From: Candidatus Fimivivens sp.
GTDB taxonomy: Bacteria; Patescibacteriota; Minisyncoccia; Moranbacterales; UBA1568
Assembly (NCBI GenBank): GCA_035560715.1
Contig: DATMYW010000034.1
Span: 16,439-80,438, forward strand
Reading direction: 5' to 3'
DNA length: 64,000 bases
Shown: one piece after another, positions 2,510 through 56,802 of the stretch
Layout of the letters: each line of letters starts with the position of its first letter
Numbering within the stretch: position 1 is the stretch's first letter
The notes under the pieces: model-generated
The model's input: only the letters and a program-made list of their open reading frames with translations
The model's database searches: none
Told to the model about the DNA's origin: nothing
Translations under genes and position numbers: made by a program

Positions 2510-2590
2510 ACGGTATTGCCAGCGACATTTCCGAAAATATAGAAAGCCCGGACGGCACGCGAGGTGCTCGTCCGGGTTATGGTTGCCGGT

Positions 2591-2806
2591 TCATCGCCAG
2601 CCTTTTTGGCGGGCGACTTTCAGGCGGGGTCGTGTGCTCCGTTTCGGTCCCTTCGCAAGTCTTTTGGGACTTGGAAAACGTCGTGAGGAACCGCCATTTC
2701 TTATTTCTTTGGGCGGAACAAGGAATGGACGTCTCGCGATGGGGAGAAGAGAGAAAGCGAGCAGGTAGCCGGCATCTGTCAGGTCAAAATTCATGAAATG
2801 TGACAT
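2591..2806 (-). CDS. Possible small basic protein of 71 aa with a K/R-rich C-terminus
   Basis: It is the only ORF in a 470-nt region that is otherwise non-coding. It is preceded on the minus strand by a strong Shine-Dalgarno sequence, GGAGGA-5nt-ATG (plus coordinates 2812-2817). It has no recognisable domain. Confidence 0.25.
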   Translation of the reverse strand: MSHFMNFDLTDAGYLLAFSLLPIARRPFLVPPKEIRNGGSSRRFPSPKRLAKGPKRSTRPRLKVARQKGWR

Positions 2807-2892
2807 GGCGGTCCTCCATGGATTCGTTTGTAAGGTACCTGCTCATGGTGCCTGCAAACAGGCGGAAAGTCAAAATGAAGTATCGCGCGGAG

Positions 2893-2921
2893 TTGACACA
2901 TTATAAATAGTAGTATAGAAT
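2893..2921 (+). promoter_or_regulatory. Sigma70-like promoter TTGACA-17nt-TAGAAT upstream of the 2977 ORF
   Basis: TTGACA is at 2893-2898 and TAGAAT at 2916-2921, with an exact 17-nt AT-rich spacer. The downstream gene starts at 2977. Confidence 0.4.
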
Positions 2922-2976
2922 GGCATATTCTCGGTGCTAGGTCTTTCAAAATTCTCAATCCAAATATTCGTATCCC

Positions 2977-3330
2977 ATGTTAGCAAATGTCAATCATCCC
3001 ACAGAAGAATCCGAAACCGTCAAAAAGAAGGAGCACGTAAGGGTGCGATTCATGTACGTCGACTCCGTTCAGGTCGCCAAAGTCAGCGTCGAAAATTCTC
3101 CGAGACGTGACGGCGCATTGTTGTTCAAGGTTTGGACACTTGTCAACGAGCATCTGATAACGGCGGGATGTTCGAAAATACCACTCGAACATTTCGATCA
3201 GATCGCAAGGGAGAGCGGTTATACGATGTATGAGTTCGCGCTTCGGAGAAATAAGGTCCCCAAAACCTTCCGTGATAATGCGGAATTCACCATCAATCTC
3301 GTAGCGCACCCAAAGAGAATAATCTACTGA
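2977..3330 (+). CDS. Hypothetical protein, 117 aa, no recognisable domain
   Basis: The ORF is bracketed by a promoter-like element upstream and a strong hairpin terminator immediately downstream. Its GC content is somewhat lower than that of neighbouring genes. Confidence 0.4.
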   Translation: MLANVNHPTEESETVKKKEHVRVRFMYVDSVQVAKVSVENSPRRDGALLFKVWTLVNEHLITAGCSKIPLEHFDQIARESGYTMYEFALRRNKVPKTFRDNAEFTINLVAHPKRIIY

Positions 3331-8639: not shown

Positions 8640-9008
8640 ATGAAGAACTATGACTCGTGGATGAAGGGATTCATGGAGGGATGGAAGAACCGGGATGTCG
8701 AGGCGGTCATGGCGACGATCGCCGGGAACTGCGCCTATTATGAGACTGTTTTCGACGAACCGTGTCCGGATATCGATGCTATTCGCGGACTCTGGAAAGT
8801 TGTTCCGGAGAATCAGAAAGACATAGAGTATTCATACGAGATTCTTGCGGAGAACGAGGAATACGGTATCTTTCATTTCCAGCTGGCAAGAACGGTTCTG
8901 CCCGAGGGGAACCGGGTGGAGATGGACGGCATCTTCCAGATATCCGTTGATGAGGCGGGGCGGTGCATCTATTTCAGGCAATGGCGTTCCGTTCGGGAAA
9001 TCCGATAA
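8640..9008 (+). CDS. Small SnoaL/NTF2-like fold protein
   Basis: The 122-aa product has the W/D pattern typical of NTF2-like proteins. The start is taken at MKNYDSW, residue 53 of the track ORF. Confidence 0.4.
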   Translation: MKNYDSWMKGFMEGWKNRDVEAVMATIAGNCAYYETVFDEPCPDIDAIRGLWKVVPENQKDIEYSYEILAENEEYGIFHFQLARTVLPEGNRVEMDGIFQISVDEAGRCIYFRQWRSVREIR

Positions 9009-9206
9009 TATTCCGCGAATGAAAATGAACGGAAACCCCTGGCAGACCCCGGGCTATTTTCTGTTTACCGAGATTTGTTTGAATGTGTAGAACATGAAAC
9101 GGCTCGAGCAGCCGATCATCCGTTAGAGACTTTCTCTGTGGGATGAGACTTCGAAAAACATGCACATCCCATTCAGGTTCTGAGACAAAAGCATGAGGCA
9201 TCCGGA

Positions 9207-9246
9207 GTTACATCTGATACGCTGTCGCATATCAGATGTAACTTTA
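9207..9246 (+). terminator. Perfect 13-bp inverted repeat hairpin with TTTAT tail between convergent genes
   Basis: GTTACATCTGATA, then a 10-nt loop, then TATCAGATGTAAC, followed by TTTAT. It lies 25 nt from the trpB stop and about 200 nt after the + strand gene. Confidence 0.4.
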
Positions 9247-9270
9247 TCGGGGATGGGATTTTGAGAAGAA

Positions 9271-10500
9271 TCAGTTCAGGTTCATCCGATCGGCGACGTA
9301 GTCGATGTCCTTATCTCCACGACCCGAGAGATTGACGAGGAGTATCGCGTCCTTGTCCATGTCCGGAGCGATCTTGATCGCATGGGCGACGGCGTGAGCG
9401 CTTTCAAGGGCGGGGATGATGCCTTCCGTCTTCGAAAGGACGGAGAACGCCTCGAGCGCTTCCTTGTCGTTTGCGGTCGCATAGGTGACGCGGCCGGTAT
9501 CCTTGAGATGGGCGTGCTCGGGTCCGACGCCCGGGTAGTCGAGTCCGGAGGCGACGGAATGGACCGGGTCCGGCACGCCATTGTCATCTTGGAGCAGGTA
9601 CGTGAACATGCCATGGATGGCGCCCGGCTTGCCGAATGTCAGTGTCGCGGCATGATCGCCCTTTTTAAAGCTTCTGCCGGCCGGCTCGACGCCGATCATG
9701 TCGACGGCGTCATTCAGGAATGCGCTGAAAAGGCCTAGGGCGTTCGACCCGCCGCCGACACAGGCTACAAGCACATCCGGGAGTCTTCCCTCGCGTTCGA
9801 GTATCTGCCGACGCGCTTCTTCGCCGACTATCGACTGGAAGTCGCGCACCATCATCGGGTACGGATGCGGTCCGACGACGGAACCGATTCCGAAGAACGT
9901 GTGATCGTGATCGGCAATGAACGCCCCAAAGGCACTATCGACGGCGTCTTTGAGGCACCGTCCGCCGGATCCGACCGCTACGACGTTCGCGCCGAGCATA
10001 CGCATGCGTAGCACGTTCGGATGCTGCTTTTCGATGTCGATCGCACCCATATGGATCTCACACTCGAGACCGACGAGTGCGGCCGCGGTCGCAAGAGCGA
10101 CACCGTGTTGGCCGGCGCCGGTTTCAGCGAGAAGTTTCGTCTTCCCCATCCGTTTCGCGAGGAGCGCCTCGCCGAGCGTGTGATTGATCTTGTGTGCCCC
10201 GGTATGGTTCAGATCTTCACGTTTCAGATAGATTTTGGCACCTCCGAGCTTTTCCGTCAGACGCTTCGCGAAGAATATCGGGGAGGGGCGTCCGACATAC
10301 TCCGCGAGAAGACGTCGGTATTCGTCCATGAAGGCTGGGTCTTTGCGCGCCTCCTCGTATGCGCCGGTAACTTCGTCGAGCACCGGACCGAGTTCAGGCG
10401 GTACGAGGCGTCCTCCGTATTCGCCGAAATAGCCTTGGTTGTCGGGAAGTTTTCCGAGTACCGTTATGACCGTTTTGCCGGAAAATAATGAAGGGGTCAT
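9271..10500 (-). CDS. trpB: Tryptophan synthase beta chain
   Basis: [37 protein letters not shown] and the rest of the PLP-fold core. The start is taken at MTPSLFSG, Met46 of the track ORF. No trpA is adjacent. Confidence 0.9.
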
Positions 10501-10639
10501 AGGGATTGAATGTGAATGATAGAAGTGACATCCGCGAGGGCTTCGCGGATCAAACGTATGTGCGTCGCCAGGAAAAGGTCGAGGCGCCCCGGAAAAGGAA
10601 GTGATCGTTCGAAGACATAGGATGGGGAATGACACATTG

Positions 10640-10667
10640 AAAAACCGCCTGTTACGGAACAGGCGGT
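10640..10667 (-). terminator. Intrinsic terminator of the trpB leader: attenuator segments 3 and 4 followed by UUUUU
   Basis: On the minus strand, ACCGCCTGTT, then a CCGT loop, then AACAGGCGGT, then TTTTTC. The stem is a perfect 10 bp. Confidence 0.7.
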
Positions 10668-10692
10668 TCGGGTACGAAGGGTCACACGAAAA

Positions 10693-10734
10693 TCACCGCC
10701 TGTTCTGAGAGGCGGTCCACCACGCGAGCTGCAT
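10693..10734 (-). CDS. trp leader peptide, 13 aa, MQLAWWTASQNRR, with tandem Trp codons
   Basis: Minus strand: ATG CAG CTC GCG TGG TGG ACC GCC TCT CAG AAC AGG CGG TGA. The TGG TGG pair is at 10717-10722. The stop codon lies at the 3' end of attenuator segment 2. Confidence 0.6.
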   Translation of the reverse strand: MQLAWWTASQNRR

Positions 10735-10767
10735 CGATCGGTTCGGTGTGATGTGCATATCGTCCAC

Positions 10768-10796
10768 AGTATAGGTATGTGTGTCGAGGCTGTCAA
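10768..10796 (-). promoter_or_regulatory. Consensus sigma70 promoter TTGACA-17nt-TATACT driving the trp leader and trpB
   Basis: On the minus strand, TTGACA is at 10791-10796 and TATACT at 10768-10773, with an exact 17-nt spacer. It sits between the upstream gene stop (10823) and the leader ATG (10734). Confidence 0.6.
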
Positions 10797-10822
10797 ACGG
10801 ATGCCGTCTCCTGACGCGAAGT

Positions 10823-11425
10823 TCAGTCGAGGAATGACAGAATTATATCGGAAAGGGAGCTGTTTTCGAATATTCCCGAAGGTATGACCGGGTTATCGCC
10901 GAACTCGTCATGTCTGATGCCTGAAAGCATGACGGTCCGCAGCCCCGATGATTTCCGAGAAAACATTTCGGAAACTGAACGGAAGAAATTTCCGAAGCGG
11001 TCTGCTGTCGACCGGATATCGATGACATCACCCGGAGTATCGGGTGTCCGAAAGACGCCGCATAGGGATATCACCCTGAGCGGCAGAATCGTGCGACCTG
11101 CGGCGAGAAGCGCGATCAGGGTACCAATACTGCAGGATATGACGGATACGACTCCTTCGGTTGTGATCAGATCCGAAAGTCTTTTCGATGCCAGGTGGAG
11201 GGATTTCGATGTCACGCTCCCGTTCCATTCGAAGCGGATGACCTCGTAGCCGCGCTGCCGCAAGGCGGGTATCCATGCTTCCTCCGAACCGGAGTAATCG
11301 GGGATGACGTTGAACAGTCCGTAGAGTCGCACGATGCCTTTCTGGACGAAGGGATTCGACGACCTGAGATACCTCGCGCCGGGAACGACGACGATGACGC
11401 GTCGTTGATCGCTCATAGTCCCCAT
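10823..11425 (-). CDS. Alpha/beta-hydrolase fold protein, esterase/lipase-like
   Basis: A strand-turn-helix around SCSIG, a GxSxG-like nucleophile elbow, and secondary-structure periodicity typical of small alpha/beta hydrolases. Confidence 0.5.
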   Translation of the reverse strand: MGTMSDQRRVIVVVPGARYLRSSNPFVQKGIVRLYGLFNVIPDYSGSEEAWIPALRQRGYEVIRFEWNGSVTSKSLHLASKRLSDLITTEGVVSVISCSIGTLIALLAAGRTILPLRVISLCGVFRTPDTPGDVIDIRSTADRFGNFFRSVSEMFSRKSSGLRTVMLSGIRHDEFGDNPVIPSGIFENSSLSDIILSFLD

Positions 11426-11853
11426 GCGGTGTCGGAAAACCGCTCTCCCGAAAACAGGTGGTCGAGTGTCACCCGGATGCGGCGGATATCATCGGCGTCG
11501 AGCGGCATATATCCGTCCTTGTGTCCCGGAGCGAACGGCTCGCCGTATTGTTGCATGACGGCGTCCTTCGCGCGGCCATAGAGGTGGATGTGGAGCGACG
11601 GTTTCCAATTGCCGTTGTCCTGGTAGTTGATGCGGCCGATTTCGACTCCGATCTCCGCCATCGCGGCTTTCAACGCTTCTCCGGAGGCGATCGTCAGTCG
11701 CATGAGCTCGATTGCCTGGCGCGGGGTGAGGAACGTGCGATCCTCGACCGGGACTTTCGGGCTTATTTTCATATGCCCTCCCTCGAGTCGGTCGATCTCC
11801 GGCGTCTCATGGGATTCGAGAACGAAGTCGCCGGTTTCGTAGATGATGGCCAT
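11413..11853 (-). CDS. HIT-superfamily-like protein with a variant triad HxHxY
   Basis: The block GRINYQDNGNWKPSLHIHLYGR matches the HIT signature region (N.G..agq.v.HxHxHxx), with the third His replaced by Tyr. Confidence 0.45.
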   Translation of the reverse strand: MAIIYETGDFVLESHETPEIDRLEGGHMKISPKVPVEDRTFLTPRQAIELMRLTIASGEALKAAMAEIGVEIGRINYQDNGNWKPSLHIHLYGRAKDAVMQQYGEPFAPGHKDGYMPLDADDIRRIRVTLDHLFSGERFSDTAWGL

Positions 11854-11874
11854 ACGTTCTTACGGAGAAAGTGT

Positions 11875-12237
11875 TTAATAGCTACGGAGGATATCGTCGA
11901 TCGCGGCAAGCATCGATTCTTGGGAATCATATTCGCGAAATACGCGTGTCAGTCTCTTCAGTGACGAGGAAGGGGCGGTGCCGGACCGGTGAATACATGC
12001 GATCGGTATGCCGGCAGCCTCAGCTCGCCCGAGCTCGATGCCGACGCCGGTTGCCGGTACCGAGACGTCCGCTACCACTAACTGACAGCTCGGGATAACC
12101 GCCCTGGAGTCCTCGTTTATCCCGTTTTCATGCGGAAAAACGAAGACAGGGCCGTCCTCCGGGAAATGTTGCCGGATGGGGCGATAAAGTTCGTTTACGT
12201 AATCGAAAGACCTCGAATGGCAGACGTATATTCGCAT
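11875..12237 (-). CDS. Nucleoside 2-deoxyribosyltransferase-like (NDT/DNPH1-like Rossmann) protein
   Basis: MRIYVCHS at the N-terminus and ATGVGIELGRAEAAGIPIA, the conserved Glu block of the family. The start is taken at the internal Met, leaving a 90-bp divergent intergenic region. Confidence 0.45.
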   Translation of the reverse strand: MRIYVCHSRSFDYVNELYRPIRQHFPEDGPVFVFPHENGINEDSRAVIPSCQLVVADVSVPATGVGIELGRAEAAGIPIACIHRSGTAPSSSLKRLTRVFREYDSQESMLAAIDDILRSY

Positions 12238-12338
12238 ATGATCGGAAAGTATCCCCCTTTCTGAAATCTCAGGTCCCTGGTACCATAGAGAGTGAAACGG
12301 CTTCATTATAGCCCGTAATCGCATAGGTGACAAAACGT

Positions 12339-13301
12339 ATGGCCGTAATCGCGAAAGAATTGAGAAAGAAGGTCATTTTTGTGTTAAAAGCCGCGATGGC
12401 GGTCGCTCTGATCGTCCTTTTGGTCATCAAGGTGGACTGGACGAAGATCTGGTCCGAGGTGTCGGAAGCGTCACCGCTGTTGCTATTGGTCGCGACGCTG
12501 CTTTATGTCGCGGGACTGTTCATGTGTATCGAACGCTGGTGGCGCGCCGCCCACTACAAGAAGTTCGCCATGACGTTCTGGGATGCGGCAGAATTCTTTT
12601 TTGCCGGACTGTTCCTGAACAATTTCCTGCCCTCGTTCTTCGGAGGTGACGCGTATCAAAGCTACATCCTCGGGAAATCCGAGCACCGGTATCCCGCCGC
12701 GATTTCGACCGTGATGTTCACGCGCTTCATCGGCCTGTGGGCCACGATATCCCTTTTTTTTACGTTCGGGCTGCTTGGTTGGAGTCGGGTGTTCACGAAA
12801 CCCGTGTTCGAATGGTTCGGCATCGGATTGCTGTTCTTCCTGGTCGCGGACTTGGTCCTCGTCTTCGTGTACGCGCATCCACGGTTCAAGCGGTTCGTCG
12901 AATGGCTTCCCGAGAAGATCAGGTGTTTCTTTTCCGAAATCGGAGGGTATGCGAAGTGGCCGTTCCTGCGGGAGAACTTCATTCTTTCGACGGCATTCGC
13001 GTTCGTCGGTGTCGGCATGTTCAACCTGATGCTGTTCTTCGCGCTCGGTGAACGGGTTCCGATTTTTCCGTACCTGGCTACCGTATTTCTTATCAGTCTC
13101 GTCTCGAGCCTGCCGGTCTCAATCAACAATATCGGACTCAAGGAGTGGGCATACTTCACGTTTTTCCCGCTTATCGGTATCCGTCCCGAAGCGGCGCTCG
13201 CCGTAGCGTTGCTCGGGCGGTTCATACAGATCCTGATCAGTCTTGTCGGGGCACCGTTCTTCTTCAGGGAAAAAAAAGAATACGGAACCGATCGGGCATA
13301 A
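12339..13301 (+). CDS. Integral membrane protein, flippase-like UPF0104 / lysylphosphatidylglycerol-synthase TM-region family
   Basis: About 8 TM helices. This family is commonly found beside GT2 enzymes in glycolipid loci. The start is taken at the ATG for MAVIAKELRKK. Confidence 0.5.
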   Translation: MAVIAKELRKKVIFVLKAAMAVALIVLLVIKVDWTKIWSEVSEASPLLLLVATLLYVAGLFMCIERWWRAAHYKKFAMTFWDAAEFFFAGLFLNNFLPSFFGGDAYQSYILGKSEHRYPAAISTVMFTRFIGLWATISLFFTFGLLGWSRVFTKPVFEWFGIGLLFFLVADLVLVFVYAHPRFKRFVEWLPEKIRCFFSEIGGYAKWPFLRENFILSTAFAFVGVGMFNLMLFFALGERVPIFPYLATVFLISLVSSLPVSINNIGLKEWAYFTFFPLIGIRPEAALAVALLGRFIQILISLVGAPFFFREKKEYGTDRA

Positions 13302-22778: not shown

Positions 22779-24362
22779 ATGCACGCAATTCTCCGACGAA
22801 TCGGAATCAAGAAAGCGGTGATCATTTCACTTGCGATCATCACGGTGCTCGGCCTGTCGATTCGGACGTATCGCTTTCACGATTGGCTCAGGTTCAATGC
22901 TGACCAATCCCGTGACGCCGGTATCGTGAGTGATGTCCTCGACGGGAAGATCGCGCTTCCGCTGTACGGTCCGAAGGCCGGAGGGACGGAGTTCCGACTC
23001 GGTCCGGCTTTCTATCACTTTGAGATCTTTTCCGCTTGGTTGTTCGGCAACCGGCCGGACGTGATGGCGTATCCCGACCTGTTTTTCTCGATCCTGACGA
23101 TTCCGCTCCTCTATATCTACCTTCGCAGGCGGTTCGGGATGCGGATATCGTTGTCGCTTACGTTTTTGTATGCGGTTTCCTTCTATACGGTCAAATATTC
23201 GCGATTCGCATGGAATCCGAACTCGCTTCCGTTCTGGTCGCTGTCGTTTTTGCTCGGATTTCAGAAACTGTCCGAGGGAGCGCCGTCCGGCGGGAAACGA
23301 TGGTGGTTCTGGCCAGCAGTGACGGGTGTCGCGCTCGGCGTGGTGGTCCAGCTTCATACCCTGGCACTGGTCGCGTTTCCCACGATGGCCGTCCTGTCGT
23401 TCGCCTACCTGGCGCTTATTCGGAAACGGGATATACGGAAGCCGCTCGCCGTGGTATTCCTGATCGCTGTCGCCTGGAATGCCACTCAGGCATACGGGGA
23501 ATTCCGGACCGGCGGTGAGAATACGCGCGCGTTCATGAGCGGAGTCGGTACGAAGGAGAAGAAAGGGAGCGGCATGGCGCGCAACGCCATTAAGGAGGCG
23601 GTCTGCTATACGGATGCGAACGTCTACGTGCTTTCTTCCCGAGACCGTTCCGATACGTGCGAGATCAAGGGTATCACGAAGGGATCCGGTGCGGTCGTAT
23701 CCTTGCTTGGGCTTATTTTCATGATCGGCGGAATCGCACACTCGATACGTTCCGTGCTGAGAGAGCGGGACGAGCGGCGCGCATTCTTCACGCTCCAATT
23801 CCTGTCCGTCATGACGCTGTTCGCGCTCACGCTGCTTCCGCTTGCCAACGAGATATCGATGCGCTTCTTCCTCGTCATGACGTTCATGCCGTTCGTCTTC
23901 CTGGGCATGTGGATCGAATTCCTCGCGGAGCGCTTGCCGAAGCCTGCGGCGATGATCATATCCGGCATCGTCATCGTGTCGCTCGTCATGATGAACGCCG
24001 TCTCGATCGGACGTTCGTTCGTCGAATATGCCGGATACGCGACCCTGTCGGGAGGTGGGATGGATAACGTGACACTGAAGGAAGTGGAACAAGCGTCGGC
24101 CTTTATCGTCGCGAATGCGGGGGATTCGGATTCCGCGTATCTCGTCGGCGATGCGAAATATCTTTTCAAGGCACAGAAGTCCATCGACTATCTGACCAGG
24201 CGGGTCGGCATCCGCGTCTTACAGCCCGGGAAAAAAACGACCGAAGGCGTTCCGGTCTTTCTGGTCGACAACAGCGACAAGGCCGATGAGATCCTGGCCG
24301 CCGGCCACGTCGAGGCGTACGGCGTACTCGGTCGATTCACGATATTCAAACGCGAACTATGA
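22779..24362 (+). CDS. GT-C-like polytopic membrane glycosyltransferase, paralogue 4 of 5
   Basis: IRTYRFHDWLRFNADQSRD, then LGPAFYHFE, then AYPDLFFSILTIPLLY, then YSRFAWNPNSLPF. Confidence 0.7.
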   Translation: MHAILRRIGIKKAVIISLAIITVLGLSIRTYRFHDWLRFNADQSRDAGIVSDVLDGKIALPLYGPKAGGTEFRLGPAFYHFEIFSAWLFGNRPDVMAYPDLFFSILTIPLLYIYLRRRFGMRISLSLTFLYAVSFYTVKYSRFAWNPNSLPFWSLSFLLGFQKLSEGAPSGGKRWWFWPAVTGVALGVVVQLHTLALVAFPTMAVLSFAYLALIRKRDIRKPLAVVFLIAVAWNATQAYGEFRTGGENTRAFMSGVGTKEKKGSGMARNAIKEAVCYTDANVYVLSSRDRSDTCEIKGITKGSGAVVSLLGLIFMIGGIAHSIRSVLRERDERRAFFTLQFLSVMTLFALTLLPLANEISMRFFLVMTFMPFVFLGMWIEFLAERLPKPAAMIISGIVIVSLVMMNAVSIGRSFVEYAGYATLSGGGMDNVTLKEVEQASAFIVANAGDSDSAYLVGDAKYLFKAQKSIDYLTRRVGIRVLQPGKKTTEGVPVFLVDNSDKADEILAAGHVEAYGVLGRFTIFKREL

Positions 24363-25999
24363 TCCCTATGAACGATATTCTTCGTCGATTGCTGAGCCGG
24401 ACCAGGACCATACCGACATGGGTGTGGATACTGACCGCTATCCTGGCCGTCGGCATCGTGCTGCGTACGTACCACTTCCGGGAGTGGATGACATTCAATC
24501 CGGATCAGGCGCGCGACGCGCTTCTGGTTCAGGATGTCCTGGCCGGCCGCGCGCCGCTGCCCCTGTTGGGTCCGCAGGCCGGTAATACGGCCTTCAAACT
24601 CGGTCCGATCTTCTATCATTTCGAGATCGTTTCGGCAAAACTGTTCGGTACGGACGCGGTCAGCATGGCCTATCCCGACCTGATGTTCTCCATCCTGACC
24701 ATGCCGCTCCTTTTTGCGTTCTTGCTGAATTTTTTCGGCAAACGTCTCGCGCTCGTCCTTACCGCGCTGTATTCGGTCTCCTTTTTCATCGTCACGTATT
24801 CCCGCTTCGCCTTCAATCCGAATTCCATTCCGTTCTTCACACTGCTCTTCCTGACCGGCCTGCTTGCGATCATGAATGCCGGGAAGAGCGAGAAACTTTC
24901 TTCCGCGTCGATGGCAGGTATCGCCATGGGAGTCGGTATCCAGCTTCATGCCCTGCTTCTGGTCGCGATGCCGATCGTCGCCGCGACCGTGTTCATTTTC
25001 CAGTTTGCCCGCAGTCGGTTCGTTTGGAAGAGCGCCCTGACGATGCTAGCCTGTTCCCTCCTGATGAACATTCCCCAGATTGTCGACGGATCGCAGGCCG
25101 GCGGATCCAATTTTCGCGCGTTCGTCGGCGGCGCGGGTGCGGAGACGCGATCATCCGATTCGAAACTGGCGCGGAACACCGTGAACGACATCAGTTGTCA
25201 TATCCAGGGAGTAGCTTATATCGCGACCGGCATCGGAAACGGTGATAAATGCGACCTGATGAACCTGCGATCGCGGATCGCGTCAAAAGGGATACGGACC
25301 AATGTTGAGGATATCGTGATCGCCGCGATCGGGGTATTGCTGTATGTCGGGGGATCGGCCTTGTTAGTGATCCGCGCCCGACGGGAAACCGATGAGCAAA
25401 AGCGGAATTTCCTCCTATTGTGCGGTTCCTACTCACTTGTCGTGTTCCTGATATTCATTCCCGTTTCCGCAAGCGTCTCGATACGTTATTTTATCGTGAT
25501 CGCATTTGTTCCGTTTCTGTTTATCGGCCTCTGGATTCGGGTCATAGCGGATCGATTCCAAGAAAAGGTCGCGAAGTCCGTATGCCTGTTGGCGATGGTC
25601 GGATTTGCGACTTCGAACGTATCGTCGATCTCGGACGCCGTGGCGAAACTCTCCGACGGAAGCGCGAGTACGGTCGATGTCGCCGTATATGGCGAGGTCG
25701 AACGCATGGGATCGTATATCATGGACGGGAACGTGTCCGATCGGGAAATCTATCTGTCAGGTGGAAGCAAGTACCTGAAGCGGTTCTATATGCCGCTCAA
25801 GTATTTCGCCGCACGAGGCGGTATCGTCCTGACGAAGGTCGACAGCGAGCGTCCGGTCGATCCGAACGTTCCGATGTATTCCATCACGAAACGCCGACCC
25901 GGGACAGTATCGTCTGGTGTCGATGTGACGCTCCGACGAGATTTCGGAAATGTCAGTATCGTCAGGGTTGAAACTTCTGGTGCTGAATCGGACGAATAA
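24359..25999 (+). CDS. GT-C-like polytopic membrane glycosyltransferase, paralogue 5 of 5
   Basis: LRTYHFREWMTFNPDQARD, then LGPIFYHFE, then AYPDLMFSILTMPLLF, then YSRFAFNPNSIPF. It overlaps the upstream gene by 4 nt. Confidence 0.7.
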   Translation: MIPMNDILRRLLSRTRTIPTWVWILTAILAVGIVLRTYHFREWMTFNPDQARDALLVQDVLAGRAPLPLLGPQAGNTAFKLGPIFYHFEIVSAKLFGTDAVSMAYPDLMFSILTMPLLFAFLLNFFGKRLALVLTALYSVSFFIVTYSRFAFNPNSIPFFTLLFLTGLLAIMNAGKSEKLSSASMAGIAMGVGIQLHALLLVAMPIVAATVFIFQFARSRFVWKSALTMLACSLLMNIPQIVDGSQAGGSNFRAFVGGAGAETRSSDSKLARNTVNDISCHIQGVAYIATGIGNGDKCDLMNLRSRIASKGIRTNVEDIVIAAIGVLLYVGGSALLVIRARRETDEQKRNFLLLCGSYSLVVFLIFIPVSASVSIRYFIVIAFVPFLFIGLWIRVIADRFQEKVAKSVCLLAMVGFATSNVSSISDAVAKLSDGSASTVDVAVYGEVERMGSYIMDGNVSDREIYLSGGSKYLKRFYMPLKYFAARGGIVLTKVDSERPVDPNVPMYSITKRRPGTVSSGVDVTLRRDFGNVSIVRVETSGAESDE

Positions 26000-26189
26000 C
26001 AGGCGGTCGACCGTCGTGGCAGCTCGGGACATGTTTGACGTTCCAGTTGTCACAAGCCTTTGCCTGAGTATCGGAATCGACCCTCAAGCAAGCAATATTT
26101 TGTCAATCATCGAAAAACGGGTACACTGACGGTGAAAGAGACGGCTAGCCTACCGCGGCGCTTGCGGCAACGAAACCGGAACCTTCACA

Positions 26190-43579: not shown

Positions 43580-44785
43580 ATGGTCATAGGCATAGATGCC
43601 TCATTTCTGCGGAAACCCGGGACCGGAATCGGGCAGGTGACGGAACAGGTGCTCCGGGTTTTGGCGTTATTGCCTGAATCGGCTAAACACCAATTCGTGC
43701 TCTACCTCGAAGAATATGCGGATACGTCGTCTTTGCCCGGAAACTTTCGAAAGCACGTTTTTTTGCCAAGTTGGAGGCGGGACGATATCCCGAGACGCTA
43801 CCTGTGGGAGCGGATGCTTGCGACCAAGGCAGTGGAGGATGGTTGTAACGCGTTCATAAGTCTGTCCCAATCAGCGACCGTTTTCCCGTATACCATACCC
43901 AGATCGGAGGGTATACGCCACCTCATGGTCGTGCACGACATCGTTCCCGTCCTGTTTCCGGCGTACCGCAGGAAATTCACGAGCCGGCTTCATCTGGGAG
44001 CGATCATGACCGCGATAGGAAAGGCGGAGCGGATACTGGCGGTTTCGAACACGACGAAACGCGACCTCGAACTCAATCTCGACATTCCCTCGGAGAAGAT
44101 AGCGGTAGCGTACCCGGATTGTTCGAATCGGTTCCGGGAACCGATTCCCGAAAACGACGCGTTCCGGGTTCTCGGAAAATACGATCTCACATCCGGCTAT
44201 ATTTATCATGGCGGGGGACTGGAAATCCGGAAGAACACCGAACGCCTTCTGCAGGCGTATGCCGAAATACTGACGGACCGGAACGGAGATGTGCCGCCGC
44301 TCGTTATTTCCGGAACGATACACGACCGACGCAACCGCATGTCGACGGATGTCGTCGGCATCATTCGAAAGTTGAAAATCCAGGATCATGTGAAGCTTCT
44401 CGGATTCGTTCCCGACGAGGATTTGCCAGCATTGTATAAGGAGGCCCTTTTCTTCGTCTTCCCTTCCCTCTACGAGGGATTCGGCATACCGATCCTGGAG
44501 GCGTTCGCCGAAGGGACCCCGATCTTGGCCGGACGAACCGCGGGCGCCGTCCCCGAAGTTGCCGGACATGCGGCCCTGCTCGTAGAGACGCAGGACATAT
44601 CGGCCATCAGGGTGGGCTTGGAAAGGCTCATAAACGACGCGTCCTTCCGTGATACACTCACGGAACGGGGAACTGAGCGGGTAAAGGACTTTTCCTGGGA
44701 AAAGTTCGCCCAGGCGTTACTCGACGAAACCCTGAAAAATGACGACCAAAACGAGTCCGATCTTTCGGAAACCTCGTCATCTTAG
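43580..44785 (+). CDS. GT4-family glycosyltransferase
   Basis: MVIGIDASFL N-terminus and the C-terminal EGFGIPILEAFAEGTPI motif. Confidence 0.8.
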   Translation: MVIGIDASFLRKPGTGIGQVTEQVLRVLALLPESAKHQFVLYLEEYADTSSLPGNFRKHVFLPSWRRDDIPRRYLWERMLATKAVEDGCNAFISLSQSATVFPYTIPRSEGIRHLMVVHDIVPVLFPAYRRKFTSRLHLGAIMTAIGKAERILAVSNTTKRDLELNLDIPSEKIAVAYPDCSNRFREPIPENDAFRVLGKYDLTSGYIYHGGGLEIRKNTERLLQAYAEILTDRNGDVPPLVISGTIHDRRNRMSTDVVGIIRKLKIQDHVKLLGFVPDEDLPALYKEALFFVFPSLYEGFGIPILEAFAEGTPILAGRTAGAVPEVAGHAALLVETQDISAIRVGLERLINDASFRDTLTERGTERVKDFSWEKFAQALLDETLKNDDQNESDLSETSSS

Positions 44786-54810: not shown

Positions 54811-56802
54811 TCAGGTCAGTGAAATCGGATCGGGGTCGAACGTCCAGGCGGTTCTGATATCAAGCAATACGTTTCGCAACGGTTCGGGAAACGGCGTTTC
54901 ACGGGGCACCGTCACCAGAACGCTGCGCTCATACCGCCCACGAACCTTCGGGATAAGCGGCTTCATGGGGGATGATATCCGAACGGTCTTCGTTTCGCTG
55001 ACGAATTCCCTGAATCGATCGCACGCATCTTCCGCGGCCCGTTTCGCTTCCGATTCAATCGTATCACGAAATGATATTCGGAACAGTCGATAATTCGGCG
55101 GATATCGCAACGATTCCCGATCGCGGGAGACCTGACCCATCAGCTCGCTGACTGATTGCTGAGCAATGTGCTGCAGCAGCTGCCGTTCCGGTCGGTATGT
55201 CTGGACGATGACGGTGCCGTCCCTTCCTATGAGCGACTTGGCTCGGGAGATGACCCGAAGAAACCGCTCGTCGGCCTGATAATCGGGAAACGAGAGGAAA
55301 TTGTCCGCGTCCATGATAGCAATCAGTGAGGCTTTCGGCAACCCGCCGATATTGAGGACGGAAGGCGTTCCGATCAGTATGCCGGCCGACTGCGCCGCCT
55401 CGTACGACTTGGATCGGTCGGCCTTTCGGAAGGTCTTCTCGTCTATCCGAAACATTGTCGCGCCGCCGAACAGCCTCGCGGCCTCACGCTCGATCTTCTC
55501 CGTGCCGGTCCCAACGGTACGGAATTCCAGTGACCCGCACTTCGCGCAGCGAGGGAATGAAACCGTCCTATAGGGGCACGAAGGGCATCTGAACCCGCCT
55601 TCCCGTGTCGACCGAAGCGCCCGGTCGCAGTCGGGACATCGCGGCACTTCCTTGCACGAGACACAGACCGAAAACGAATCGAATCCGCCACGGCTGACGA
55701 TGAGCAGGACCTGTCTTCCGTCTTTCCTTGCCAAGATGACGGCGTCACGCAGTTCATCCGAAATCGGAGAATAGTTCTTTTTCCATCGTTCCTTGCGCAT
55801 ATCGACGGTCGAAATTCGTGCCGCCGGGGGATCCGGAACTCCTTCGCCGAAACGCAGAACCCTGACCTCGCCCATTCGTTCCCGCAGTGCCGTGTCGAGT
55901 CCCTCGACCGAACCTGCCAGAAGGAGTTTTGATTCGTGGAGCCGTGCCAGTGTCATGGCGACGCGGCGTGCGTCGTATCGCGGACTCATGTCCCATTGTT
56001 TGTATCCCACCGCCTCGGCTTCCTCGAGCAGTACGACGAGTCCGAGTTTCCTGAAGGGAGCGAACAGCGCCTGACGCGTACCGATGACGATATCCGCCTG
56101 ACCGGATCGGATCCGTTCCCATGCGTCGAAATACGCTCCGTCACTTTGCGAGCCGGAGAGCGTCGCTACGCGCTCCGCGCCGAAGCATCGATGGAGTTCG
56201 CGTTCCACGAAAGGGATAGCGATCAATTCCGGCACAAGCACGAGAACCTGCGATCGCCGCCCGATATCCCGCTTCGCGCCGGAAGTTATGCGTAGCGATG
56301 TCGTAATGTCGGTCTCCAGGAAGAACGGCTTCGCGTCAGACGGATCAAGAAGCGTCTTCACGGCGTCAGATTCGTCGCGAGTGAGACGGAAGGTCTGACT
56401 CGGAATGGTATCAGTCATATGAGTTTTCGCCCGTTCCTTCACGGTATGTGGAAGGAAATGCCCGAGCGTTTTCCCGAGAGGGGTAATGCATTCGGCCGAT
56501 ATCGACTCGGCGAGCACGATCTGTCCGTCGGTGATGAACGATTCGCGGATGATCGACTTCACATATCTGAACCGCCCACTCGGACGTTCTGCCGGAGCGA
56601 TACGTTCGCACGTGAGGACGATACCCCTGACCGTCCTCGGTCCGAAGGGGACCATGACGAGAGAACCGCGCGGAATGACTGATTCCGACAGATACGAATA
56701 CCGCTGCCGGTTCCGGAGGGGAATCGGTACGACCGGCACGATATCACAAAAATAGAGGGATTCCGGACTCATGTGTCCATTGTAGCCGTTCCCGACCCGC
56801 AC
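54811..56802 (-). CDS. priA: Primosomal protein N' (PriA) homologue with degenerate Walker A and DExH motifs
   Basis: Collinear with PriA throughout: VLVLVPE, IVIGTR, the CxxC...CxxC...CxxC...CxxC zinc module, and IVQTYRPE. Walker A reads ITSGAKRD and motif II reads LLEEAE. Confidence 0.75.
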   Translation of the reverse strand: MRVGNGYNGHMSPESLYFCDIVPVVPIPLRNRQRYSYLSESVIPRGSLVMVPFGPRTVRGIVLTCERIAPAERPSGRFRYVKSIIRESFITDGQIVLAESISAECITPLGKTLGHFLPHTVKERAKTHMTDTIPSQTFRLTRDESDAVKTLLDPSDAKPFFLETDITTSLRITSGAKRDIGRRSQVLVLVPELIAIPFVERELHRCFGAERVATLSGSQSDGAYFDAWERIRSGQADIVIGTRQALFAPFRKLGLVVLLEEAEAVGYKQWDMSPRYDARRVAMTLARLHESKLLLAGSVEGLDTALRERMGEVRVLRFGEGVPDPPAARISTVDMRKERWKKNYSPISDELRDAVILARKDGRQVLLIVSRGGFDSFSVCVSCKEVPRCPDCDRALRSTREGGFRCPSCPYRTVSFPRCAKCGSLEFRTVGTGTEKIEREAARLFGGATMFRIDEKTFRKADRSKSYEAAQSAGILIGTPSVLNIGGLPKASLIAIMDADNFLSFPDYQADERFLRVISRAKSLIGRDGTVIVQTYRPERQLLQHIAQQSVSELMGQVSRDRESLRYPPNYRLFRISFRDTIESEAKRAAEDACDRFREFVSETKTVRISSPMKPLIPKVRGRYERSVLVTVPRETPFPEPLRNVLLDIRTAWTFDPDPISLT

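Follow-up and report, generated by a model that had tools for sequence, protein, structure and literature searches.

How might a bacterium with few regulators match a single tryptophan gene to its tryptophan supply? The question is raised by a trpB gene and its leader on the minus strand of a 64-kb stretch of DNA (the window, at its full length). We consider it very probable that this leader is a ribosome-mediated (leader-peptide) transcription attenuator, tying expression of a stand-alone trpB to the supply of charged tRNA-Trp in a Moranbacteria-like bacterium of the Candidate Phyla Radiation (CPR, or Patescibacteria). CPR bacteria account for a large share of bacterial diversity and have tiny genomes, few recognisable regulators and unusual ribosomes; to our knowledge, almost none have been cultured. 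Direct support comes from the sequence elements, their conservation and covariation, the thermodynamic feasibility of the switch and the identity of trpB. What emerges is a known mechanism in a new lineage and context, together with one unexplained extra part, a second small open reading frame (sORF2) that follows the terminator.

The leader begins with a sigma-70-type promoter (10768-10796, minus strand, as are all leader features below) in which a 17-nt spacer separates the -35 hexamer TTGACA (10796-10791) from the -10 hexamer TATACT (10773-10768). Already named in a preliminary description of the sequence, this promoter is confirmed by the sequence and by a promoter scan, where it scored 11/12 matches, and neither hexamer varies among the close relatives aligned. 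Downstream lie the tandem Trp codons UGG-UGG of the putative sensing site (10717-10722), and the very next nucleotide opens the first of four RNA segments, S1 (ACCGCCUCUC, 10707-10716). S2 (AACAGGCGGU, 10695-10704) shares its last base with the stop codon of the leader (UGA, 10695-10693), and is followed by S3 (ACCGCCUGUU, 10658-10667) and by S4 (10644-10653), which is the same 10-mer as S2. The segments and the U5 run were found where the preliminary description had placed them, as were their alternative pairings: S1 with S2 over 7 bp (an anti-antiterminator), S2 with S3 over 10 bp around a 27-nt loop (the antiterminator), and S3 with S4. The S3:S4 hairpin has 10-11 bp and the loop CCGU and, with the U5 run at 10644-10640, forms an intrinsic terminator (10640-10668) whose U-tract is invariant (T85-T89 of the alignment). 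A second U-rich stretch directly after S2 (10692-10689) is also conserved, with T37 and T38 invariant in the alignment, and in the promoter scan the combination of S1:S2 with the trailing GAUUUUCG was marked as resembling a terminator or pause site. Within 60 nt there are three copies of the 10-mer AACAGGCGGT or its complement, where chance would give 0.05 per 64-kb window. A fourth exact copy on the plus strand (25998-26007), which overlaps the stop of the gene at 24359-25999 and lacks attenuator-like context, was set aside as chance.

The gene downstream (9271-10500) encodes a 409-aa tryptophan synthase beta subunit with a PALP domain, and its score against TIGR00263 (566.5 bits, cut-off 392) identifies it as a canonical TrpB. 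Its ATG at 10500, a start conserved in relatives and without a preceding Shine-Dalgarno (SD) sequence, lies 139 nt past the U-tract, in line with the distance of about 140 nt first proposed. No further trp gene was found in the surrounding 64 kb, so that trpB is locally stand-alone. Two other reading frames listed mechanically across the leader, a 99-aa TTG ORF (10497-10796) and a 454-aa GTG-extended trpB (from 10635), were rejected because relatives have no gene call there, indels are not multiples of three and the ATG at 10500 is conserved.

Whether these elements form a unit under selection was addressed by comparison. TrpB homologues were sampled without reference to their leaders, and 13 CPR loci (the window, L081, L082, L085, L086, L087, L089, L090, L211, L212, L214, L215 and L216) were compared; 12 distinct loci with TrpB 73-100% identical make up alignment A2, with L216 as an out-of-sample locus. 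A promoter, an in-frame ATG...UGG-UGG ORF, the four segments and the U-tract precede trpB in 13/13 loci (TrpB 73-100% identical), which span 31-56% GC; in each, UGG-UGG is invariant and lies directly 5' of S1. Outside the helices there is little conservation. Within them, substitutions run through all four segments together: the GC-rich loci have ACCGCC/GGCGGU, L211, L212 and L214 have ACUGCC/GGCAGU, and L216 has GCUGUCC/GGACAGC. In A2, 91.7% of cells are paired in S1:S2 (double changes in 2 of 7 pairs), 96.4% in S2:S3 (4 of 10 pairs) and 96.2% in the S3:S4 core (2 of 7 pairs). Pair 27:75 of S2:S3, for example, is U-A in five sequences, C-G in four and G-C in two. None of 500 shuffles reached the pairing and covariation observed for S2:S3, and registers slid by 1-3 columns were only 28-53% paired. 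Pair counts were taken from A2, as a 13-sequence MAFFT alignment that included L216 (A4) mis-aligned S3 of L214 and L216. Since the covarying S2:S3 pairs include positions that lie outside both S1:S2 and S3:S4, the antiterminator itself is under selection. All three helices are thus, as judged from these alignments, kept through compensatory changes, with S2:S3 the best supported. Conservation of the Trp-Trp ORF together with covariation of S1-S4 in orthologous loci was the test that the preliminary description had set for itself, and its outcome is positive.

The same comparison bears on the simplest alternative, that the hairpin and U-tract terminate the upstream gene (10823-11425) or act as a constitutive insulator, the Trp-Trp mini-ORF and repeated 10-mers being coincidental. 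A hairpin with a U-tract is indeed the generic signature of an intrinsic terminator, and the upstream gene shares the strand, with just 27 nt between its end and the -35 box. Yet a strong promoter separates that gene from the hairpin, the repetition of the 10-mer is far above chance, and pairs specific to the antiterminator covary. Furthermore, the genes upstream of the attenuator are unrelated between loci (hypothetical proteins, RecO, PspC/RNase J, TrpR or LPG synthase), and the unit of promoter, Trp codons and S1-S4 stays with trpB nonetheless, indicating that the attenuator travels with trpB rather than with the gene before it. A terminator of the upstream gene, or an insulator, is already contradicted by these comparative sequences and is scarcely credible.

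The ribosome-reading model further requires a translatable leader. The preliminary description had proposed a 13-codon ORF starting at 10734; its Trp-Trp codons and stop stand, whereas its start does not. The ATG at 10734 encodes an internal, non-conserved Met, and the invariant, in-frame ATG lies at 10758-10756, which gives a leader-peptide ORF (sORF1, 10693-10758) of 21 aa. Every locus has an upstream ATG in frame with UGG-UGG and without intervening stops. The N-terminal residues vary, with 10-12 codons ahead of the Trp pair in 11 of the 13 CPR loci: the peptide is MHITPNRSMQLAWWTASQNRR in the window, MSNVPFRTSFIAWWTAS in L081, MNSTVQTTKSIAWWTAS in L082, MNRTNVIISNSWWTAFRNRW in L087, MINQTLKLNSWWTAFDRQ in L211, MTQTNLQLTSWWTAL in L214 and MSSWWAVWRCGQ in L216. 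In all loci the stop codon falls either in the S1-S2 loop, as in many relatives, or at the end of S2 or directly after it.

The start of sORF1 sits 9 nt past the -10 box in the window, and this gap measures 6-9 nt in 12 of 14 loci, whose promoters match 8-12 of 12 consensus positions. Because so short a gap leaves no room for a Shine-Dalgarno sequence, the sORF1 mRNA is probably leaderless or has a 5' untranslated region of at most 3 nt, judging by promoter geometry. Leaderless leader peptides have been documented in Deinococcus deserti, including one for trpEGD (PMC4007540), and also in Corynebacterium and Mycobacterium (PMC3890552; bioRxiv 10.1101/834739). Across the window, no more than 19 of 48 crude gene calls show an SD motif, however loose, within their first 50 codons, which suggests that SD-independent or leaderless initiation is widespread in this organism. 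We also observed a TATAAT 6 nt ahead of the ATG of the gene at 43580, and some other genes likewise start shortly after a TATAAT-like box.

We then asked whether the leader could switch when a ribosome is placed on it. Calculated energies in the window are -12.0 kcal/mol for S1:S2, -16.1 for S2:S3 (-19.0 with a hairpin in its loop) and -16.5 to -18.6 for S3:S4. The folding check proposed earlier therefore finds the antiterminator and terminator comparable in energy; at equilibrium, however, the free leader of the window folds as S1:S4 stacked on S2:S3 and not as S1:S2 plus S3:S4. The stacked fold is frequent among the free full-length leaders, and since it also sets a helix before the U-tract, an untranslated leader should terminate by either route. 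A ribosome was imitated by masking the RNA as far as 13 nt past the A-site codon. Under a stall at UGG the antiterminator, without terminator, was the minimum free energy (MFE) fold in 10 of 12 loci and in L216 (11/13), and a ribosome at the stop codon gave the terminator fold in all loci. By its helix energies the leader of the window would be a balanced, kinetically decided switch like trpL of Escherichia coli. The hallmarks of the attenuator class are found together: tandem cognate codons, a terminator, a mutually exclusive antiterminator, the mask geometry and a Trp-pathway gene downstream.

From these parts we infer where transcription starts, that sORF1 is translated, that transcription terminates at the U-tract and that the outcome responds to tryptophan. 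Transcription would start at, or a few nucleotides before, the AUG at 10758, and a ribosome would load on the leaderless or nearly leaderless mRNA. When Trp-tRNA is scarce, the ribosome would stall with UGG-UGG (10722-10717) in its decoding centre and cover S1, and S2 would then pair with S3 as soon as S3 emerges; S4 would stay single-stranded and RNA polymerase would read on into sORF2 and trpB. When Trp-tRNA is plentiful, the ribosome would run to the stop codon and cover S2, so that S3:S4 forms and transcription ends at 10640. If no ribosome loads, S1 would pair with S2 (or S4), and either S3:S4 or the stack of S1:S4 on S2:S3 would stand before the U-tract, again leading to termination. Read-through transcripts would encode sORF2 first, and its most likely role is to control, or to make possible, the translation of trpB, itself without an SD sequence; this is the least certain of these steps. 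The E. coli trpL-like logic given in the preliminary description is in this way supported by conservation, covariation and energetics.

A switch of this kind need not be worked by a translating ribosome, and uncharged tRNA (in the manner of a T-box), a TRAP-like RNA-binding protein or TrpR could act instead. In two loci, L216 and L003, a TrpR gene lies directly upstream of trpB, and several promoters have palindromic spacers between -35 and -10, so that some members of the clade may add control by a repressor. Rfam returned neither a T-box nor any other family, even with E up to 10, and a T-box would not fit in a leader that measures only about 120 nt between the transcription start and the terminator. 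Moreover, a conserved frame and start codon, Trp codons set 5' of S1 and a stop codon placed relative to S2 are required only if a ribosome reads the leader, and L216 holds both TrpR and the attenuator, which makes TrpR an addition rather than a substitute. A trans-acting factor in place of the ribosome is accordingly very unlikely.

Alternatively, the terminated leader RNA, the leader peptide or both might act mainly in trans, with cis control secondary, like rnTrpL and peTrpL of Sinorhizobium meliloti. Attenuator-derived small RNAs and functional leader peptides have precedent (PMC6614838, PMC7298713), and the terminated product would, from its predicted folding, be an abundant, stable and highly structured RNA of about 120 nt. 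Against this, the N-terminal sequence of the peptide is not conserved, its WWTA[SF] tail is explained by the overlap with S1, conservation outside the helices is low, and no second target-like copy exists within the window. As the chief role of the leader, action in trans is highly improbable, and any such role would add to cis attenuation rather than replace it.

How far does the element extend? A covariance model of the terminated conformation (R1) scored its members at 65-93 bits and L216, which lies outside the model, at 49.5 bits (E ~5e-9); neither 80 unrelated trpB loci nor the remainder of the window exceeded 20.6 bits. Neither the R1 scan nor a sequence search found a second attenuator copy elsewhere in the 64-kb window. 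Rfam gave no relevant match, either at the gathering threshold over the whole window or with E up to 10 over 9000-12500; Rfam, Pfam and NCBIfam models thus miss the element, and R1 could serve to annotate it. A motif scan of metagenomes with TGGTGGACCGCYT-N4-14-RGGYGG returned at least 120 matches in GC-rich DNA that were judged to be chance, and none of those listed had a downstream terminator or trpB. Among species-representative genomes the best TrpB is only 70% identical, and the top three differ in their leaders: L001 has none that we could find upstream of trpB; L002 (TrpB 68%) has a divergent W-Q-W leader, a terminator and sORF2; and L003 has a TrpR/YerC-like gene directly upstream of trpB in place of a leader. 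The L003 gene (at about 2560-3000) ends in ...PRWWKDFKSW and is followed by a hairpin and U7, and its 3' end might itself be a Trp-sensing leader; this metagenome-assembled genome (MAG) bears the label Gracilibacteria, a group in which UGA possibly does not serve as a stop. The cluster in L216 (2473-5415) has the order trpR (TIGR01321), attenuator, trpB and trpS (TIGR00233). Just upstream of its trpR we observed a 38-nt palindrome, TTGTATTACTATAGTACTACAGTACTATAGTAATACAA (2428-2466), that resembles a TrpR operator with GTACT/AGTAC half-sites.

Several points weigh against reading the leader as an attenuator, or temper it. Only 13 related loci are available and the shuffle controls ignore their kinship, so that independence is overstated and part of the covariation is inherited. 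The window itself, along with L215, keeps the terminator as its MFE fold even when S1 is masked: under the stall mask the terminator fold in the window reaches -24.9 kcal/mol, versus about -19 for the antiterminator fold. The cause is that S3:S4 is extended to 11-12 bp in these two loci, and read-through there must depend on co-transcriptional kinetics, with S2:S3 forming ahead of S3:S4; the same applies to E. coli, whose 3:4 helix is likewise the more stable. L002 shows no clear antiterminator in the simple ribosome-mask model. Finally, attenuation presupposes that CPR ribosomes initiate on leaderless mRNA and that transcription and translation are coupled in these cells. Turned around, a conserved, covarying attenuator in at least 13 CPR loci would imply that translation closely follows transcription, that initiation takes place on mRNA with essentially no 5' leader, and that tryptophan, made by a lone TrpB presumably from scavenged indole, is worth regulating for these cells.

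The stretch from the terminator to trpB contains a further small ORF, sORF2 (10550-10618), which the preliminary description does not mention. It begins 21 nt past the U-tract without a Shine-Dalgarno sequence and encodes a 22-aa peptide with the conserved block F-L-Y-R-[GN]-x-S-T-[FH]-[SY]-W-R, where conservation ends at UGG-CGA (10570-10565). It is present in 12 of the 13 CPR loci (TrpB at least 73% identical) and in the more distant L002, and its ATG is conserved in all 13 loci that bear it. Among the GC-rich loci, differing codon pairs are synonymous or nonsynonymous in the ratio 120/148 in frame (45%), versus 6/251 (2%) and 18/205 (8%) in the shifted frames, an in-frame excess that indicates purifying selection on the peptide. 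The motif persists at 31% GC as S-L-Y-H-N-C-C-L-F-V-W-R-R. A small hidden Markov model (HMM) of sORF2 scored its members at 23-32 bits and all other six-frame segments, about 1.2 Mb, at 13 bits or less, and an HMM search found no second sORF2 elsewhere in the window. Eight sORF1 and sORF2 peptides gave no Pfam or NCBIfam match with E up to 10. Past W-R, sORF2 varies in sequence, in length (22-47 aa) and in frame relative to trpB; its stop lies between -49 and +38 nt from the trpB ATG, and it runs in frame into trpB in L089 and L002, being out of frame or stopping earlier in 11 of 13 loci. The Arg codon after the Trp is CGA in 11 of the 12 Arg-bearing copies, although CGA makes up only 6-23% of Arg codons in these genomes, and at the other Arg position of the block the codon is free to vary. 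In L216, trpB starts 23 nt past the U-tract and a separate sORF2 is missing, which shows that sORF2 is not essential to the attenuator; UGG-CGA occurs inside the leader peptide of L216.

Judging by these patterns, sORF2 is most likely a translated regulatory or coupling ORF that delivers ribosomes to trpB or withholds them. A more specific proposal, drawn by analogy and rather doubtful, is that sORF2 encodes a regulatory nascent peptide: with F-L-Y-R-x-x-S-T-F-x-W in the exit tunnel, the ribosome would pause or arrest at UGG-CGA in response to free tryptophan or indole, and so gate the SD-less trpB by coupling or, in L089 and L002, by in-frame read-through. If so, indole salvage would be under two serial ribosome-based sensors, of tRNA-Trp charging at sORF1 and of a metabolite at sORF2, and both would operate without a Shine-Dalgarno sequence.

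The opposite possibility is that the block is no translated regulatory peptide at all, and is instead an RNA or DNA element (a protein-binding site or a structure) or what is left, in degenerate form, of an N-terminal extension of TrpB. Nucleotide-level conservation of UGG-CGA, its presence in the leader peptide of L216 where no separate sORF2 exists, the lack of a Shine-Dalgarno sequence before sORF2 and the in-frame fusions to trpB in L089 and L002 would fit this possibility. Against it stand the 45% synonymous differences in frame versus 2% and 8% in the other frames, and a peptide motif that survives the shift from 55% to 31% GC despite low nucleotide identity. No conserved RNA structure was found there: in eight relatives, RNAalifold gave no conserved pairing from W-R-R to the start of trpB. 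The ATG is conserved in 13/13 bearing loci, and in 11 of 13 loci sORF2 either ends ahead of trpB or is not in its frame. We regard this non-peptide explanation as rather unlikely. As a translated ORF, sORF2 would be a candidate for a new peptide regulator that is small and open to experiment.

Directly after the sORF2 stop lies an 8-bp hairpin, AUCCGCGA/UCGCGGAU (10529-10549); the preliminary description had reported it, and it is indeed present in the sequence, yet it has no conserved counterpart in the RNAalifold analysis of the eight relatives and is specific to the window. Alignment A3 also shows the motif ATTCAT(C) to be conserved in the GC-rich relatives (10505-10525 of the window). It lies some 15-25 nt ahead of the trpB ATG, which has no SD sequence, and may be a non-SD initiation signal. 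At the other end of the leader, the spacers between -35 and -10 are palindromic or of alternating purines and pyrimidines in the GC-rich relatives, L086 among them (L081, GTACGCGCGCGTAC, about 1010-1040; L085, ACACGTGT; window, ACACACATAC, 10774-10790), and a palindromic spacer could be an operator overlapping the promoter. A further promoter-like site, TCGAAA-16-TATAAT (10842-10869, minus strand, 10/12), falls within the 3' end of the upstream gene and precedes the main promoter by about 75 nt.

Which organism carries this locus? The exact TrpB and PriA (54811-56802, minus strand) of the window are deposited as "Candidatus Fimivivens sp.", an Oscillospiraceae genus. The nearest relatives of TrpB (73-88% identical) carry the labels Moraniibacteriota, Magasanikbacteria or Patescibacteria, those of PriA, an independent marker, are all Moranbacteria where they are named, and syntenic loci share GT4, NUDIX, UDP-glucose-dehydrogenase and LPG-synthase neighbours. 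Together, TrpB, PriA and synteny assign the contig to a Moranbacteria-like CPR bacterium, and the Fimivivens label most likely reflects mis-binning. Beside trpB lie NUDIX, SnoaL, GT4 and hypothetical genes, and the 64-kb surroundings make up a cell-envelope glycosylation locus plus RtcB and PriA. Both trpA and trpB have been reported in some Patescibacteria (PMC8672522), and the literature that we searched held no link between CPR and leader peptides or leader-peptide attenuation.

Among known systems, E. coli trpL (trpEDCBA; RF00513) shares the most with the CPR element. Both have a short ORF with adjacent UGG-UGG, regulatory codons just 5' of segment 1, and segments that form 1:2, 2:3 (the antiterminator) and 3:4 (the terminator, with its U-tract); in both the antiterminator does not exceed the terminator in stability, which makes the choice kinetic, and the 1:2 hairpin is followed by U-rich sequence resembling a pause site. 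The CPR element nevertheless shows no similarity to trpL in sequence or by covariance model (no RF00513 match), lacks a Shine-Dalgarno sequence, has its ATG 6-9 nt past the -10 box, and controls one salvage-type gene in a CPR host rather than a five-gene pathway operon, with a second conserved sORF after the terminator.

Regulatory codons that match the downstream pathway, in a leader peptide that would, like theirs, be translated without a Shine-Dalgarno sequence from the extreme 5' end of the transcript, link the CPR element to the leaderless systems of D. deserti (trpEGD), C. glutamicum and the mycobacterial poly-Cys sORFs (PMC4007540; PMC3890552; bioRxiv 10.1101/834739). Those systems belong to other phyla, their starts are mapped, whereas the CPR start follows from promoter geometry only, and none has been described with a second peptide-conserved sORF.

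An attenuator directly upstream of trpB is not as unusual as the preliminary description had held. Seliverstov et al. (2005) predicted attenuators before trpB1EDGC and trpB2A in Corynebacterium diphtheriae (PMC1262725), and an actinobacterial MAG labelled Leucobacter soli (L014, 2837-2935) has, upstream of trpB, the leader peptide MHIVTQWWIA and its stop codon, followed by CGCC/GGCGG/CCGCC/GGCGGUG-U6, with the leader ATG 6 nt past a -10-like TACACT. The four-segment design in L014 is very like that of the CPR element, but it scores only 20.6 bits with R1 and a Shine-Dalgarno sequence precedes its trpB. In these actinobacterial cases trpB heads multi-gene operons and the complete pathway is present, unlike in the CPR locus.

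The nearest functional analogue is trpRBA of Chlamydia trachomatis, in which a reduced-genome, host-dependent bacterium likewise keeps the last tryptophan step or steps, for indole salvage, under Trp-dependent control, and TrpR is encoded beside trpB, as in L216 and L003. The means differ: the annotated chlamydial TrpL is atypical (59 aa, non-adjacent Trp codons) and unvalidated, and attenuation is exerted in trans by YtgR through a WWW motif (PMC7755916), whereas the CPR element is a compact classical cis attenuator.

For sORF2 the comparison leads to TnaC, also a short upstream ORF in a Trp-related leader whose conserved peptide includes Trp. The TnaC nascent chain senses free L-Trp in the exit tunnel, and its Trp residue is essential (PMC8429421, PMC8450073). 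Yet sORF2 has no sequence similarity to TnaC and lacks both the W-x3-D-x7-P-stop layout and a conserved D or P; it is conserved only as far as W-R(CGA), its stop position varies over nearly 90 nt, arrest on it is hypothetical, and it precedes a biosynthetic rather than a catabolic gene. The Salmonella mgtCBR leader shares two consecutive small ORFs, each able to influence downstream expression (PMC3641672). There the signals are Pro, ATP and Mg2+ and each ORF governs alternative stem-loops, in contrast to sORF2, with which no conserved structure is associated. The mechanism itself is textbook, which limits the surprise, and the surprise would be greater only if sORF2 proved to be a new sensing peptide. 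Set beside these systems, the CPR element is best filed as a variant of leader-peptide attenuation: an attenuator of probably leaderless type, in CPR bacteria, acting on a stand-alone trpB and followed by a second, peptide-conserved sORF.

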